Below are positions 6,555 through 63,420 of a stretch of 64,000 bases of DNA, in pieces; position 1 is the first letter of the stretch; each line of letters opens with the position of its first letter. The DNA comes from Octopus vulgaris (lineage: Eukaryota), in the NCBI GenBank assembly GCA_951406725.2, contig OX597817.1, positions 24,800,001-24,864,000 of the forward strand, written 5' to 3'. The translations under genes were made by a program, and so were the position numbers. Below the pieces are notes generated by a model. The model was not told where the DNA came from. It was given only the letters and a program-made list of their open reading frames with translations, and ran no database searches.

Positions 6555-6930
6555 GAGGGCGCAATGGCCCAGTGGTTAGGGCAGCAGTCGTAGGATCGCG
6601 GTTTCAATTCCCCGACCGGGCGTTGTGAGTGTTTATTGAGTGAAAACACCTAAAAGCTCCACGAGTCTCCGTCAGGGATGGTGGGGATCCTTGCCGTACT
6701 CTTTCACCACAACTTTCTCTCACTCTTACTTCCTGTTTCTGTTGTACCTGTATTTCAAAGGGCTGGCCTTGTCACTCTCTGTGTCATGCTGAATATCCCC
6801 GAGAACTACGTTAAGGGTACACGTGTCTGTGGAGTGCTCAGCCACTTACACGTTAATTTCACGAGCAGGCTGTTCCGTTGATTCGGATCAACCGGAACCC
6901 TCGTCGTCGTAACCGATGGAGTGCTTCCAT
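6555..6930 (+). mobile_element. tRNA-derived SINE family D
   Basis: tRNA-like head TGGCCCAGTGGTTAGGGC...GGTTTCAATTCCC; near-identical copies at 13344, 50224 and 53975. Confidence 0.85.
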
Positions 6931-22903: not shown

Positions 22904-23725
22904 TATATTGTTGTATTTAGGAATGGTCATTTTGTCAGTTTAGCCAATAAAAACACACACACTATATATTTGGTGTTACTTTGCTTCAGCGTTATTCATT
23001 TTTTACATTAATCTTAATCTTATTTTGGCGAGAGTTCTTTTGTCACACTCCTGTGACCTCATCAGTGGTCCTTTGCTTTCTTTCTTATTTGTGTGACTCT
23101 CCTTACTAACGGTCAGCCATTTTGTATTTTGTATTCCTATTGTATGTGTCTTCATTTGCGTATGCATATACCTTTGTGTGTCTATAAAAAAAAAATTTTT
23201 TTAATAAAAAACATAAATAAAATATAAAAAATAATAAAAAATTAAAAACATTTATAATAAAAAATAAATGAAAAATAATGATAATAATAATAATAACAAT
23301 AATAATGATAATAATAATAATAATAAGTAGGTGTAAACGCATGAACAAAATAGAAATAAAAAAAACAAATTACATGAACGTATATAAACAGGAGATACAA
23401 ATATTACAGGCAATTCCCTTCCACACACACTAACTAAACATAGATACACATAAAGGTATATGCATGCGTAAATGAAGACACATACAATAGGAATACAAAA
23501 TACAAAATGGCTTACTGTTAGTAAGGAGAGACACACAAATAAGAAAGAAGAAAGCAAAGGACCACTGATGAGGTCACAGGAGTGTGACGCGAGAACTCTG
23601 GCCGAAATAAGATTAAGATTAATGTAAAAAATGAATAACGCTGAAGCAAAGTAACACCACATATATAGTGCGTGTGTCTTTATTGGCTAAACTGGCAAAA
23701 TGACCATTCCTAAATACAACAATAT
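22904..23725. mobile_element. Palindromic (TA)n-flanked element, probably Penelope-derived
   Basis: ~280-bp inverted arms at 22904-23185 and 23440-23725; CTGATGAG...CCGAAA motif in the right arm. Confidence 0.7.
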
Positions 23726-24379: not shown

Positions 24380-24790
24380 AAACAACATCAATTTCTTTGT
24401 TTGCCGTAAGGCATTATTTTTCTCACACGCCAGCTAATTTGAATTGTCTAAAGTCGAAAGACGCCTCTTGTCTTTGTCCTGTTATCATTATTATTATTGT
24501 TTTCTGTTTTTTGTATTTATATTCGTATTACCTTTTGTTTTTTGTATTTATTTTCGTGTAACATCATCCATTTTTCTATCCTTCTTTTGTATACATTCGA
24601 TCCTTTTTCCAAGAAATCTAATGCTCGTAGCTTAGTTTTTCCTTGGGACTAGCCAGATCGGAGCAATCTCAAGATTAGTCAGCTGAAATTGCGAGGATGA
24701 GCCGGTTCTTGACTGAAGATTAGAAGCTTTGAATGACCCGTCCGTTTTCGTATCGTCTATTTGAATGTTTTGCGTTCTTGTCCCATTTTG
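24380..24790 (+). mobile_element. (TA)n-embedded non-coding repeat carrying a permuted hammerhead candidate
   Basis: Bounded by TA microsatellites; 3' part matches 46409-46540. Confidence 0.65.
24652..24728 (+). ncRNA. Candidate non-circularly permuted (pseudoknotted) hammerhead ribozyme
   Basis: GCAAU-C|UCAAGA ... AGCU GAAA UUGC ... UCUUGA CUGAAGA uuaga AGCU; stems I, II and III all pair. Confidence 0.6.
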
Positions 24791-38590: not shown

Positions 38591-39155
38591 ATCATATAAT
38601 ACATGATACAATGGTTTACTGTATGGGGTGCAGTGCATTAGACATTTAGTCACTGGAGCAAAAAGTAAGACTCTCTCAAAAGCCTTCATGTTATTTCTAA
38701 AATAAACTAAACACAACAATTTGTAGGTTGTTTTAGGACTAAAAATCCAAAGACAAGATTGTCATTGGCTTGTATATTGATGAAATAATGAAGTTTTGCT
38801 ATGTAAGTCATTGCCATATTGATTAAGAATTTTACCATATAATCACATGTTTATGTATTTGATTCATAAGTGTCTTCTACAATAGTCTCAGATCAATATA
38901 TGCCTTATGAGTGAAATTAGGGAAATGGTAACAATCAGATGGAATGTTCATTTCAACATCCTGTTTTGGCTTTGGGATGTCTTTCAGGCCAAATCAGACC
39001 ACATAACTTTTGTTATATGGTTTGTATCATATAACAAAAGTTATATGGTACAAACTTAACGTCAGTTAAGGTGAGACAGTGTCAAGTGACAACTTGCTGG
39101 GGCTGCCTGCTGGAGCCTAGCAGCAGGTATTTAAAGGGAAAAATTTGACAAGTCA

Positions 39156-39385
39156 GTCAGTCACCGGCTGACACTTGCTGACGATACATCGAAGAGGCCA
39201 GGGAACAGAAGAAAGAAGACATGCACCCAACACCTGAAGACACCTCCAAAAGAAGGAGCCCTGCCATGTCAAAACGGTAGAGGAGTAGGAGCCGAAACCG
39301 GACGTGGTTCCTCCTGATGATGTCTTGAGCTAACTGGATCCTATAAAGGAGCTGTTGTGGTAGCAGACCATGAAACACGATTGTA
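39156..39385 (+). mobile_element. 3' fragment of the HERO-like element seen at 53400-53966
   Basis: Reverse-complement match to ~53420-53620. Confidence 0.7.
39264..39326 (+). ncRNA. Candidate non-circularly permuted hammerhead ribozyme
   Basis: CCAUGUC aaaa CGGU-A|GAGGAG uag GAGCC GAAA CCG GACGUGG UUCCUC CUGAUGA u GUCUU. Confidence 0.55.
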
Positions 39386-39946
39386 ATTCCTATTGCAGGA
39401 ATCCATTGAGCACAATTTCTTTCTCCTTTTAATAATATGTGTTCAAGACTGTGTAAAAGTGAACACTGCTCTTCATCCTTCCCTTTTCTGATCTTGCTGA
39501 AGCCATATAAAAGATGTAATAGATGGTAAGTAATAAGAGTGATGGTGGAGATTTAAATGCATTACCATCAGTGTATGATGATGGTATGTACAAGAAGAGC
39601 AAAAGATGAGCAAAAGAAAGAGAAAAAAGGAGTGGCTGATAAATTATTAACATACATGCACCGTTAATGCAACATTTTCAAAAATGAAATATTACAAACA
39701 TTTTGGCATGCTAATAATTCTGTCAGCTTGTTGCCTAAATAACGCTAATGCTAATAATCCTTTCTATTATTGGTACAAAGCCTGAAAGTTTCGGGGGAAA
39801 GGTTTAGTAGTAATTAGTTTATCAACCCTAAAGGGATGAAAGAACAAAGACAACTTTGGCAGAATTTATACTTAGAACATAACAATGGATAAAATGCCAC
39901 TTACCATTTTGCTTGGCATGCTAATGAGTCTACCAGTTCACTGCCT

Positions 39947-46408: not shown

Positions 46409-46411
<3 letters not shown>

Positions 46412-46535
46412 AGCCGAAATTGCGAAGATGATCCGGTTCTTGACTGAAGATTGAAGGCTTCGAATGTCCCATCCGTGTTTTTTGTGTCGTCTTCTAATGT
46501 TTCACGTTCTTGTTCCATTTGTATTTTTTTACTTT

Positions 46536-46540
<5 letters not shown>
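46409..46540 (+). mobile_element. Truncated copy of the 24380-24790 repeat inside (TA)n
   Basis: Matches ~24679-24790; long TA arrays on both sides. Confidence 0.75.
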
Positions 46541-46605
<65 letters not shown>

Positions 46606-53399: not shown

Positions 53400-53966
53400 A
53401 CAGCGTGTGGGGTATTTCAACCGTGTTTCGTGGTCTGCTACCACAACAGCTCCTTTATAGGATCCAGTTAGCTCAATACATCATCAGGAGGAACCACGTC
53501 CGGTTTCGGCCTCTACTCCTCTACCGTCTTGACGTGGCGGGGCTGTCTTCAGCTCTGGTGTTGGGTGCATGTCTTCTTTCTTCTGTTCCCTGGCCTCTTC
53601 GATGTAGCGTCAACGAGTGTCAACGGGCGAATTTTTTATAACTCGCTGCGTCATTTGCTTTCGGCCACTTAATCTTTGTCCTCTTCATGCCTATCACTCT
53701 TTTAGACTGTTCCAATTCAACTGTGGAATGAACCTCGCTATGGTTATTTTCCAGGAGGTTCTGGCCACACGTCTTATGGTTTATCAACTCGCGTTGTTGA
53801 ATTACTTTCTTCTGACACACCTTCCCTTGGTGGATTCTCAGCCCGATGTAACTAGCAAACACCTTTCCGCAGCAGCTGAACTCCTCCTCGACCATTCGAG
53901 TTGTCTCTCCGTTGTTGACTGTGAAACGAGACGATAAGGCTCTATTGTTCCTTTCTGTGGCTGCAT
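53400..53966 (-). mobile_element. Internally deleted HERO-like RLE non-LTR element
   Basis: ORF 53620-53895 has the zinc-finger-like CCGKVFASYIGLRIHQGKVC and IKWPKAND, joined directly to a 3'UTR-like segment. Confidence 0.65.
53475..53537 (-). ncRNA. Candidate non-circularly permuted hammerhead ribozyme
   Basis: Minus strand: CCACGUC aaga CGGU-A|GAGGAG uag AGGCC GAAA CCG GACGUGG UUCCUC CUGAUGA uGUAUU. Confidence 0.55.
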
Positions 53967-53974
53967 ATCCGTCG

Positions 53975-54349
53975 CAATGGCCCAGTGGTTAGGGCAGCGG
54001 ACTCGCGGTCATAGGATCGCGTTTTCGATTCCCAGACCGGGCGTTGTGAGTGTTTATTGAGCGGAAACACCTAAAGCTCCACGAGGCTCCGGCAGGGGAT
54101 GGTGGTGATCCCTGCTGTACTCTTTCACCATAACTTTCTCTCACTCTTACTTCCTGTTTCTGTTGTGCCTGTATTTCAAAGGGCCGGCCTTGTCAGTCTC
54201 TGTGTCACGCTGAATATCCCCGAGAACTACGTTAAGGGTACACGTGACTGTGGAGTGCTCAGCCACTTACACGTTAATTTCACGAGCAGGCTGTTCCGTT
54301 GATTCGGATCAACCGGAACCCTTGTCGTCGTAACCGACGGAATGCTTCC
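53975..54349 (+). mobile_element. SINE family D
   Basis: TSD ATCCGTCG at 53967-53974 and 54350-54357. Confidence 0.9.
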
Positions 54350-54956
54350 ATCCGTCGATGGCTTTCTGCAAAATAGAATGTAATTTGGTTATCTTCAAGA
54401 ACTGTGACATTATGACTTTCTGTATTGTAACGATATTTTTTATGACTACGATGTCACCGGCGTAGAACCTATGATTGGTGGACCATTTTATAAGAGCGAT
54501 GATTTGAGATACTGTTCTATACAAGGTGTGTGTGTGTGTGTGTACTCGCGCATCAATGAGCGGTCTTGCGTAAATGATGTAACACTTATACACCGTAAGT
54601 CGGTGATTTTGACCAATCGTATGTACAGGCATACCTCACCTAACGTCGTTTCGATTTGCATCTTTTCCGACATTACAATTTTTTTTAAAGAAATTAATGG
54701 AAAAAAAAACTTCAACTTCAATTGATTTATTCGACTTTACGCGGGTTACTTTCTCAAAATTTTGAATGTTATCCTCTTTCCATAGTAGAATATGTTTTAT
54801 ACTGTTGGCGATATAGTAGTGCTTGCTGAAAGTCCGTAAACCAACTAAATAGCCAAATGAGTGTGATACTGTGAGTATGTATAGTTTCTAAGCGATTGGG
54901 AAGCAACTCTGTGAAACTAGCATTGTTGTTATGTAAAGTTACAGGGCATCCGTGAA

Positions 54957-57293: not shown

Positions 57294-57644
57294 CTCACAG
57301 AGAGAGAATATTATCAGTACCATCATCATCATTATCAACACCTTTTTCTTTTAAATTTTGGTTAAAATGTTTTCATCTGAAAAGATTAGAGAAGAGAAAA
57401 TACATTTTATATCAATCTGTGGGTTTCAGTAAGTGTTTTAAAGGCCGGGAGTTCGTTAAAAGAATACATCCATATAAATTGACTTTAAATGTTATGCACG
57501 CAAGTGGAAAACACTACAGCCTTCCTCAAGCGAGGAAATAGACGATACCCAATGCGTAATCAAACATTTCATACCTATAAATGGGCTAAAGCATTTCTTA
57601 GCACCTGATGTCGAATTTCAAATTGGGGACATCAGGGAGAAAGA

Positions 57645-59445
57645 GGTGAAATTGTTTTGTGAGAAAATCTAGGACAAAGAGTGCTCTAGAAGGTGATGGC
57701 GTCTCGTATAAAGTATATAAATATTGCAACCGTCTACAAAAGAAGCTCTTTGACCTGCTCCGACAGCTGTGGAGCGAAGAGATTCTAGTAAAAGATTGGT
57801 GTAAGTCAGAAGGAATATACCTGCCGAAGGAGGCCAACGCAGAGACTATAAAACAGTTTATTAAATGTGGGAGGCAAGATCTTTATGGGAATTCTTTCAA
57901 GGAGAACAGTGGCATATCTACAGAGTAATGGATATGTTGATGAATCCGTTCAAAAGGCCGAAATCCCTGGATGCGTTGAACATGATTTGGAAAGCGATCC
58001 AGGATGCCAAATAGAACGTGGGATGGCTTGATCTAGCTAATGCATATGGTTCAATGCCACACGAATTACTGATCAGAACCATGGACCACTTCTACATTCC
58101 GGAAAAAGTAACAAAATTAATGACAATTTCGAAATGAGGCTTACAGCTGGAAATTTTACAGCAGATTGACACCGAACAAATCGCCCCTGTACAATCACCT
58201 AAGAAGACCTTCACAGATGATGTGACTCTTCTGTCGAAAGACAAGCAAATCATGCAGTGTGCCCTCTTGAGGCTAGACGAGCTTGTGAAGTGGTCAAGGA
58301 TGCGATTCAAAGCAAAAATGTCGTGTAGTCTGACATTTATTAAGGGAGTGCAAAAAGAAGTTAAGTTTAAAATAGCTGAAGAAAGCATTCCAACAGTCAA
58401 GGAAGAACCTGTCAAGCACTTGCGGTGTGTATACACTGGAACATTGTCAGGTAGGTGTCGCGGGATGCAAATTATGACGCAAGCAAAGGATGGGTTAACA
58501 GCAATTGATAACTCAAAGCTACCAGTTATGGGGCTTATTGTTCAACCTGTATCTATGCCATTCATGGTCACTTTTATTATATGAGGTGGCACTATCACGA
58601 GTTCAAATCATTGAACAAAAGTGTAATGTGTTCATTAGAAAGTGGCTAGGTCTACTTCAGATGTTGAACAGTTCAGCTCTCTATCATAAAAGAGCCTCAT
58701 TGCAGCTACCATTGGCATAAATAGTCGAAATTTATAAACTAGAGAAGTTATGAACAGTGATGATGTTGAGAGATTCGAAGGATATAGAAATCATGCTTAA
58801 TCCACCAGATGTAAAAACAGCCAGAATGTGGAAAGTAGAAGCAGAGACTGATGACATCCTGTCATCACTAACACACCGAGATGTGGTGGGTGCAACGCAA
58901 ATTCATCGGAAGGGACTTGGATTTGGCGCAGATCGGTTCAGACCGTTTGCAAGCATGATGCGGACCAAATACAGATCTGTTGTTAGCAACAGCATCAAAG
59001 CAAAAAAAAAAAAACAGAAAAAAGAGCTTCATTTGATCCAATGCGCTCAACAAGGACAGATGGCGAAATGGGAGGAACAGATGTATCTATTCAAAGCAAA
59101 TACCACTATGAGTAATATCCAAACTATAGAGGAAAAGGCAAACCACTAGATTTGGTTAAAAAGAGATGATGAGCGATGACTAGAAGAATATTGAGCTATA
59201 TCTAATAACCTGTTGACCTTGCAAGCGGGGCTTCATTTCAGTGAGGGAAGGGGTGGTGGGCAAGGATGCCGCCGAGAGATAGGACCCGAAACAGCGCGCA
59301 TTCTCTCCTGATGATCCCATACACTTGTTGTCTTCCGGCATGCGGAGCTTTCGACTGATAGCACTTGTATATGTAAGTCGGTAACAAAACATGGCAAACC
59401 CATGTTTACCTTTTGTGACCCTTGTATTCACACCAGCATACTGAA
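57645..59445 (+). mobile_element. Decayed HERO-like RLE non-LTR retrotransposon (RT, C-terminus, 3'UTR)
   Basis: RKSRTKSA..GDGVSYKVYKYC..WCKSEGIYLPKE; WLDLANAYGSMPH; FTDDVTLL; WSRMRFKAKMSCSL; IRKWLGL; terminal EEKANH*IWLKRDD; many frameshifts. Confidence 0.85.
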
Positions 59446-62126: not shown

Positions 62127-62459
62127 TTGGGTATAAAATGACACATATACGCGACTGGCAGACAAAGAGCTTTGGGATGTAGCAGAGGGAGAACACGACC
62201 AGCAAGGCACACGGGTGACGAACGGACACGGGCAGCGTCAGAAGCTCGCTAATATCATCGTGTCGAACTATCCATAACAATACAAACGACTAACTTCTTT
62301 TACAATAACATCCAAAATCTCTCAACCAGAAATAAAGTTTGTTCGTAAAATCCCCAAACAGATTTAGGTGGTGCAGGTCGTTATTGAGTCACCTAATATG
62401 ACTCTCAGAAAGTGGTAATTTCGGGTTAAACTAAAGCGTTAAACCCGGTCAAAAAAAAC

Positions 62460-63420
62460 AAAAAAAATTTTGTGTAACAGGCGTAAAACAACTTCCTCTA
62501 AACGAATATGAAAATAAATGCGCGCACGCGAAAGGGGAGTGGGGGAGAGGCCTCGGAAAATTCACATCGGGAATTTCCGAAAGCGTCTGAGGGGTTGACC
62601 CGGGCTCCAAAACAAAAGAAAATATAGTGTAATATGTGTAAAACAACTTGCTCTAAACGAATATGACAAAAAAAAATGCGCACTCGCGAAAGGGTGGGGG
62701 GTGGGGGAGAGGCCTCGGAAAATTTACATCGGGAATTTCCGAAAGCGTCTGAGGGGTTGACCCGGGCACCAAAACAAAAGAAAATATAGTGTAATATGTG
62801 TAAAACAACTTGCTCTAAACGAATATGACAAAAAAATGCGCGCACGCGAAAGGGGGGTGGGGGAGAAGCCTCGGAAAATTCACATCGGGAATTTCCGAAA
62901 GCGTCTGAGGGGTTGACCCGGGCACCAAAACAAAAGAAAATATAGTGTAATATGTGTAAAACAACTTGCTCTAAACGAATATGACAAAAAAAATGCGCGC
63001 ATGTGAAAGGGGGGTGGGGGAGAGGCCTCGGAAAATTCACATCGGGAATTTCCGAAAGCGTCTGAGGGGTTGACCCGGGCACCAAAACAAAAGAAAATAT
63101 AGTGTAATATGTGTAAAACAACTTGCTCTAAACGAATATGACAAACGAAATGCGCCCTCGCGAAAGGGGGGTGGGGGAGAGGCCTCGGAACATTTACATC
63201 GGGAATTTCCGAAAGCGTATGACCCGGGCACAAAAACAAAAACAGTGTGTAACAATAGGTGTAAAACAACTTGCTCTAAACGAATATGATGAAAAAAATG
63301 CGCGCTCGCGAAAGGGGGGTGGGGGAGAGACCTCGGAAATTTCAAATTTTCAGTCCACGGCCTTTAAACTAAGAAAAAAATAGTGTAATTGGTGTAAAAC
63401 TACTTGTTCTAAACGATTAT
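62460..63420. repeat. Tandem array, ~156-bp unit, ~6 copies
   Basis: GTAAAACAACTT-like anchor at 62483, 62638, 62800, 62956, 63113, 63261 and 63394. Confidence 0.95.

Follow-up and report, generated by a model that had tools for sequence, protein, structure and literature searches.

In the 3' region of a non-LTR retrotransposon remnant at 39.2 kb, the conserved letters of a hammerhead ribozyme core occur in a non-circular order. Is this a genuine self-cleaving RNA, how does it fold, and what would it do for the element that carries it? The whole stretch of DNA analysed (the window, 64 kb) is eukaryotic, AT-rich, rich in repeats and nearly without long ORFs, and its SINEs are, as we take them to be, cephalopod in look. 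Three remnants of related elements lie in it:

39066..39391, + strand: 5'-truncated 3' region of a high-copy RLE (HERO-like) non-LTR element, the 39.2-kb copy; 5' boundary approximate
53410..53970, - strand: second copy, internally deleted; N-terminal ORF piece (C2H2 finger) fused at ~53630 to the same 3' region
57614..59378, + strand: decayed element of the same clade but another family; RT remnant followed by a decayed copy of the RNA fold

The 39.2-kb copy (39161-39390) matches the second copy (53411-53630, minus strand) at 86.5%. Contigs from four runs cover 39100-39391, and the 5' extent is given by one loose contig end that matches back to ~39066. The 3' end is sharp at 39390-39391, where contigs end loosely with unlike flanks (149, 114, 39 and 1 in the four runs), 111-112 nt beyond the predicted cut. 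The family was found in 20 of the 24 runs listed, including five coded organisms. In the 53.5-kb copy the predicted cut base is A53522 and one hairpin of the fold (Pb, below) is lost; its N-terminal ORF piece is 60% identical to protein P0001 and resembles the start of P0012. Note that a SINE-like repeat (53973-54351; further copies at 6560, 13343 and 50224) splits this ORF piece, the frame of which seems to run on across it. The element at 57.6-59.4 kb has a 77% DNA match to locus L001, and its RT remnant is 40-57% identical to P0012 (tblastn). Its decayed fold retains GAAA at 59288-91 and CUGAUGA at 59308-14, with a C replacing U16.1, and matches the model with 19 bits (E 0.0014).

P0012 is a single ORF of 1144 aa with R2 proteins as its best solved matches, and its relatives carry a cysteine knuckle and a PD..E endonuclease motif. 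On these grounds the elements are RLE non-LTR retrotransposons, and we presume the motif-bearing clade to be HERO. The relatives have a single ORF with N-terminal zinc finger, R2-like RT, knuckle and PD..E, of which the window holds remnants only. The first-pass annotation had placed the core downstream of an RLE non-LTR ORF, and this was borne out.

The hammerhead core occupies 39275-39320, in the block order S-G-C (cut site, GAAA, CUGAnGA), with the letters CUGAnGA, GAAA and UH all present. A descriptor for this order found one site in the window, compared with 0.015, 0 and 0 per shuffle at three levels of strictness (200 shuffles of the window). The non-circularly permuted core described in the first-pass annotation is thus present, as are its stem I, stem III, GAAA, CUGAUGA and a fourth helix set off by a 4-nt bulge. 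The extent then given, 39264..39326, was too small; the full motif spans ~39222-39365 and is composed as follows:

39222..39232, + strand: 5' strand of Pe, the outer closing helix, pairing with 39353-39365 in the minimum-energy fold of 39222-39391
39237..39242, + strand: strand X of helix Pa, pairing with 39321-39326, directly 3' of CUGAUGA
39243..39256, + strand: hairpin Pb, filling the gap from X to Y; one mismatch in the 39.2-kb copy
39257..39262, + strand: strand Y of helix Pc (stem II equivalent), pairing with 39288-39293; two mismatches in the 39.2-kb copy
39264..39270, + strand: 5' strand of P4, which extends stem III, pairing with 39301-39307 (7 of 7 pairs); 4-nt bulge to stem III
39275..39285, + strand: block S, with stem III 5' strand (39275-78), cut base A39279 and stem I 5' strand (39280-85)
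39286..39307, + strand: linker to P4, with Pc 3' strand (39288-93, C11.1 last), GAAA (39294-97), stem III (39297-300) and P4 (39301-07)
39308..39326, + strand: stem I 3' strand (39308-13), CUGAUGA (39314-20) and Pa 3' strand (39321-26)
39339..39365, + strand: hairpin Pd (39339-50) and Pe 3' strand (39353-65), from computed folds

All pairs of stem III (39275-78/39297-300) and stem I (39280-85/39308-13) are formed. Helix Pa has six of six Watson-Crick pairs (mean pair probability 0.97) and shows compensatory changes in three of four columns; Pe-like helices also appear in the folds of L001-L005. Position 39257 (Y1) is the equivalent of G10.1, and the 10.1-11.1 pair is broken in the 39.2-kb copy. 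At 39253, 39257, 39262, 39267 and 39290 the majority letters of the reads (64-99% of depth in X1, X6 and X13, which are DNA-type runs) restore or strengthen pairs of the Pb, Pc and P4 region; the majority letters of X9, by our guess an RNA run, agree at 39267 and 39290 only. Among the variant rows listed for the four runs, none falls in the core. Since the positions mismatched in Pb and Pc are paired in the majority letters of X1, X6 and X13, the 39.2-kb copy is a decayed passenger, probably of weak or no activity. Contig depth, which is no measure of copy number, is ~2-fold higher past the cut than before it in three of the four runs.

Rfam showed no ribozyme match in the window or in 20 motif-bearing loci, and plain folding of the 63-nt stretch gave a z value near zero (-0.11). 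The Rfam blank would be expected, as its models are nested and the strand order is pseudoknotted. In nested folds of the sub-family of the 39.2-kb element, a rival helix occupies the 3' strand of stem I.

Related elements were collected by searching with an alignment of 13 C-terminal proteins, and the best 80 of 408 metagenome loci plus 6 genome-bin loci were analysed. This covers the survey of related elements that the first-pass annotation had called for, and it confirmed that the motif is conserved: the S-G-C core with stems I and III lies less than 700 nt from the ORF end in 39 of these 86 loci, compared with none on the reverse complement and none in the 700 nt upstream in the same loci. 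A quick tree of the 86 rows contained one clade of 52 (SH-aLRT 96) with 42 motif-bearing rows, three of them decayed. The remainder of this clade consists of 8 rows with less than 400 nt past the ORF and 2 rows without the motif, and among the 34 rows outside it a real core occurs in L083 only. In this tree the core marks one clade of RLE elements. In L083 (1150-1260), a circular contig in a bacterial genome bin, the S-G-C core fails the four-way-junction test described below. The nearest DNA relatives of the 39.2-kb motif among the fetched loci are L003, L004 and L016. The protein search returned no relative from viral contigs and 6 matches from prokaryote genome bins, which are probably eukaryotic contaminants.

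The 39 loci and the three window copies fall into 28 families (<80% core identity), 27 of them with enough 3' sequence for the following comparison. In a standard hammerhead, the strands that follow CUGAnGA and precede GAAA would pair with each other as stem II. Tested in 12 registers over 27 families, this pairing scored 6.3, compared with 6.1 for swapped partners, and 1695 of 5000 swaps reached the observed score. The stem II of the first-pass annotation (39289-93/39322-26, after a 1-nt insert) is such a pairing and did not hold up; in an alignment of six sequences from the nearest relatives, 40% of the cells of this helix are paired. A canonical stem II was therefore rejected. Pairing of both strands with upstream sequence instead scored 32.0, compared with 22.0 ± 0.7 in swaps, and 0 of 5000 swaps reached this value. 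In 17 of the 27 families a helix of 4 or more pairs closes the gap between the two upstream strands, X and Y, as against 2.4% of 702 swapped pairs; in this test X and Y were picked by complementarity alone. A closed junction in any register was found in 28 of the 39 core loci; among 123 phage loci with the core letters (4 of them passed a loose core test) there was none. Among the 11 core loci without a closed junction are truncated, decayed and longer-insert cases. For the full model, 88.6% of the cells in the six-sequence alignment are paired (Pa 92%, Pb 72%, Pc 83%). Thus, this comparison shows stem II to be replaced by a four-way junction of the core, Pa, hairpin Pb and Pc. We regard it as very likely that the fold is real, and from the sequences our verdict on the clade-wide RNA is a hammerhead with a new topology.

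We next consider whether the sequence bears the marks of hammerhead chemistry. Every helix varies through compensating pairs across the 28 families; stems I and III show at least 4 pair types at most positions, although pairing itself was required by the descriptor. All four bases occur at N7, and A9 is followed by C in 11, G in 8, U in 7 and A in 2 of the 28 families. C11.1 is invariant (28 of 28), and Y1 is G in all 17 families with a closed junction. The 10.1-11.1 pair thereby appears to be kept next to G12-A9, with the G supplied by the upstream strand. This is the most conserved hammerhead pair after A15.1-U16.1, as far as the accessible text of Perreault et al. 2011 (PMC3088659) goes. 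A relaxed search, which required the helices but tolerated two deviations from CUGAnGA, a single one from GAAA and any base at position 17, gave 22 matches on the forward and 2 on the reverse strand in 263 kb. Of the forward matches, which are not independent of each other, 21 have a perfect CUGAnGA. Position 17 was G in 0 of 22 matches and Y1 was G in all matches; U16.1 is nearly forced by its pairing with A15.1 in this search. The remaining forward match, L052, considered as a decayed motif, was rejected as an AT-rich chance match.

Contig ends were also compared with the predicted cut. L032 has its end on H17, and the first base of L009 lies 1 nt beyond the cut. These are 2 of 29 ends mapped within -150 to +450 (102 ends tested; binomial P 0.004-0.024 depending on window width), in a post hoc comparison of contigs that may be RNA or DNA. 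From the conserved positions we consider it quite likely that the motif cleaves itself after H17. In the open-access literature we found no hammerhead in which A9 does not run into stem II, and the break in the A9-10.1 link would be unprecedented.

What follows the motif bears on its function. Of the 14 core loci whose sequence extends 600 nt or more beyond the cut, 6 (L018, L022, L024, L027, L076 and L083) contain the N-terminus of a next ORF on the same strand. Because a next ORF follows it, the motif in the '3' UTR' is also the leader of the next unit in those families. Exact terminal overlaps were found in L013, L039 and L083, and in L009 the 90 nt after the cut recur at both contig ends with 92% identity, starting at the cut. 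L004, L016 and L029, which belong to the sub-clade of the 39.2-kb motif and have long 3' flanks, contain no downstream unit. The only hint of a tandem in that sub-clade comes from three X13 contigs, in which a loose end at 39343 continues into N-terminal coding DNA. Nor are tandem or circular contigs confined to core loci, as L049, L053, L063 and L073 show. Related loci are homologous out to +111 to +121 past the cut. The first-pass annotation had suggested that cleavage sets the template 3' end for target-primed reverse transcription (TPRT). This does not agree with the copies: since they run 111-112 nt further to a fixed end, the cut is not the source of the inserted 3' end.

We propose that the motif is a hammerhead of new topology at the unit boundary of RLE (HERO-like) elements, where it would process tandem units in the manner of Penelope-like elements. 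We put the probability of this reading at roughly 65%; if the RNA does cleave, a role in unit processing is likely. Pc would stand in for stem II, stacked on A9-G12 with G10.1-C11.1 as its first pair, while the backbone after A9 would exit into Pa. The short linker from stem I to Pc would substitute for the contact between loop I and loop II. Since Pc would stack as stem II does and the linker would replace the loop contact, cleavage is predicted after H17 (A39279). Cutting of head-to-tail transcripts would then yield unit-length RNA with the post-cut sequence as its 5' end. The pre-cut and post-cut halves are held together by about 25 bp, presumably those of Pa, Pc, P4 and stem III. Because these pairs span the cut, the ends would remain clamped to each other in a nicked or re-joined circle. 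Reverse transcription would start internally, at a fixed site ~90-120 nt past the cut, and cross the junction, so that the whole motif would be kept in genomic copies and partial tandems would be frequent. Tentatively, and at somewhat less than even odds, this hammerhead with a split block C, outside the six block permutations, may be the ancestral processing element of the clade, acting through tandem cutting, a circle and internal priming ~100 nt past the junction. If so, 'non-LTR' elements would replicate via a retrozyme- or Penelope-like circular route rather than by linear 3'-end priming.

Other explanations must be weighed against this proposal. The fold might be real but non-catalytic, a docking site for the RT-RLE protein comparable to the R2 3' UTR that derives from, or merely resembles, a hammerhead. 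The copies do retain the whole motif and a fixed end beyond the cut, additional helices (Pd and Pe) adjoin that end, and the canonical stem II is missing. Yet Pa, Pb and Pc rule out only the canonical stem II and leave stems I and III in place, and the positions that matter for hammerhead chemistry are conserved (N7 free, H17 never G, G-C at 10.1-11.1) despite changes in all helices. Moreover, two contig ends lie on the cut with the right polarity, and docking is itself compatible with cutting; we consider a purely docking function unlikely. Slightly less probable is a cleaving brake or switch on single linear transcripts, where the cut would take off or nick the 3' end and reduce the amount of mRNA or template, only uncut RNA would be inserted, and tandems would be a separate matter. 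It would account for the uncut sequence held by inserted copies, for the lack of a downstream unit in L004, L016 and L029 and for the competing helix in the 39.2-kb sub-family, and type-SGC ribozymes are slow (0.007-0.13 per min in the accessible part of PMC10085705). Against it speak the at least 6 loci where a next ORF has the post-cut sequence as its leader, and L009, both ends of which hold the 90 nt after the cut, beginning at the cut itself.

The model of the first-pass annotation, a plain type-SGC hammerhead whose stem II is weak and whose cut generates the 3' end for TPRT, is right on the strand order and on stems I and III. Hammerheads also tolerate a stem II of 1-2 pairs and U-U at 10.1-11.1 according to what is accessible of PMC3088659. 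Here, however, the pairing is at chance level, the base after A9 can be any of the four while C11.1 is invariant, and both the element end at 111-112 nt and the homology to +111 to +121 lie well past the cut. This explanation is largely refuted and highly improbable. A chance match to the hammerhead letters, for which the missing Rfam match (window and 20 loci) and the folding z near 0 might speak, is refuted by conservation across the clade and has a negligible probability; the shuffles, the 39 of 86 loci against empty controls, the split-stem score and the closed junctions against 0 of 123 phage loci all contradict it.

Among known RNAs the motif most resembles type SGC (HRIMA-1 and variants; Eckert et al. 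2023, PMC10085705), with which, in the portions of that paper available, it shares the S-G-C order, the full core, the pseudoknotted stems I and III and a short linker between stem I and the strand preceding GAAA. In type SGC, by the same text, CUGAnGA runs directly into stem II, as an uninterrupted block C confirmed by compensatory mutation, whereas in the RLE motif the strand after CUGAnGA pairs upstream, block C is interrupted and a hairpin makes a four-way junction. Their extra helix joins stems I and II, while the extra helix here extends stem III; as the strand between stems III and I pairs upstream as P4, the helix I of Eckert et al. would have no free partner. Type-SGC RNAs were published from metatranscriptomes, with none found in genomes of known organisms in the accessible text (PMC10085705), whereas the RNAs of this order described here sit in retrotransposons.

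The hammerheads in the pseudo-LTRs of Penelope-like elements (Cervera and de la Pena 2014, PMC4209133; Frangieh et al. 2024, PMC11167929) share, in the sections available, the unit-junction site, the partial tandems, the proposed unit-length or circular RNA and the start of reverse transcription inside the RNA. They are described there as mostly minimal type I and are thought to act as dimers, whereas the RLE motif is apparently complete as a monomer. Penelope-like elements combine a GIY-YIG endonuclease with a telomerase-like RT; the motif-bearing elements have R2-like RT-RLE instead. In the Penelope element PAc, as reported in the accessible part of PMC11167929, mutated hammerheads still allowed insertion in vitro, and none of the reads had its end at the cut. 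The HDV-like ribozymes of R2 (PMC13708176) and the twister variants of Perere-3 (PMC8501958) likewise make the 5' end of the element RNA from a longer transcript. From what these sources contain in their accessible parts, they belong to other classes, lie downstream of their own cut and sit at the 5' end of single insertions. The RLE motif is cut in its middle, and therefore its upstream half must come from the preceding unit.

A search of the open-access literature returned no type SGC beyond the 2023 paper, no mention of a hammerhead in any RLE element, HERO included, and no natural four-way junction replacing stem II. If the motif cleaves, the published assumption that CUGAnGA leads directly into stem II would no longer hold, which would account for a ribozyme of many eukaryotic genomes having escaped descriptor and Rfam searches. 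As far as the literature was searched, cellular genomes would thereby gain their first non-circularly permuted hammerhead with covariation support. An RNA-processing step open to experiment and a tandem life cycle like that of Penelope would also be added to the biology of an RLE clade that has received little study and is related to R2, whose elements now serve for gene insertion.

Several further observations were made in related loci. L030 and L076, of one sub-family, carry by eye a tRNA-like sequence between the stop codon and the ribozyme. Weak Twister-P5 matches occur in L070 (4014-4070; 28.3 bits) and L080 (2772-2821; 20.5 bits), below the gathering score of 37.6. This Twister-P5-like stretch lies ~240-270 nt past the ORF end in RLE loci outside the hammerhead clade, with similar sequence in L068, L077 and L079, and is perhaps another ribozyme class at the same place. 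L049, L053, L063 and L073 are tandem or circular contigs without the core and without an Rfam ribozyme; they are candidates for other self-cleaving RNAs.

The window itself contains a tandem array at 62433-63420 with a unit of ~150 nt. At 24640-24740 (+) and 46410-46557 (+), a repeat flanked by (AT)n carries an S-G-C motif with good stems I and III; both copies are decayed. The first-pass annotation had described the former, at 24652, as sharing its strand order with the 39.2-kb motif, and by eye the S-G-C order with stems I and III is indeed common to both. The model built on the 39.2-kb family did not match the 24652 motif, and motifs of the 24652 type had no match in any fetched locus. Finally, an inverted repeat pair at 22905-23181 (-) and 23446-23725 (+), with copies 93.6% alike, has in each copy CUGAUGA followed in classical order by a branched stem II and GAAA or AAAA, and is possibly a Penelope-type hammerhead.
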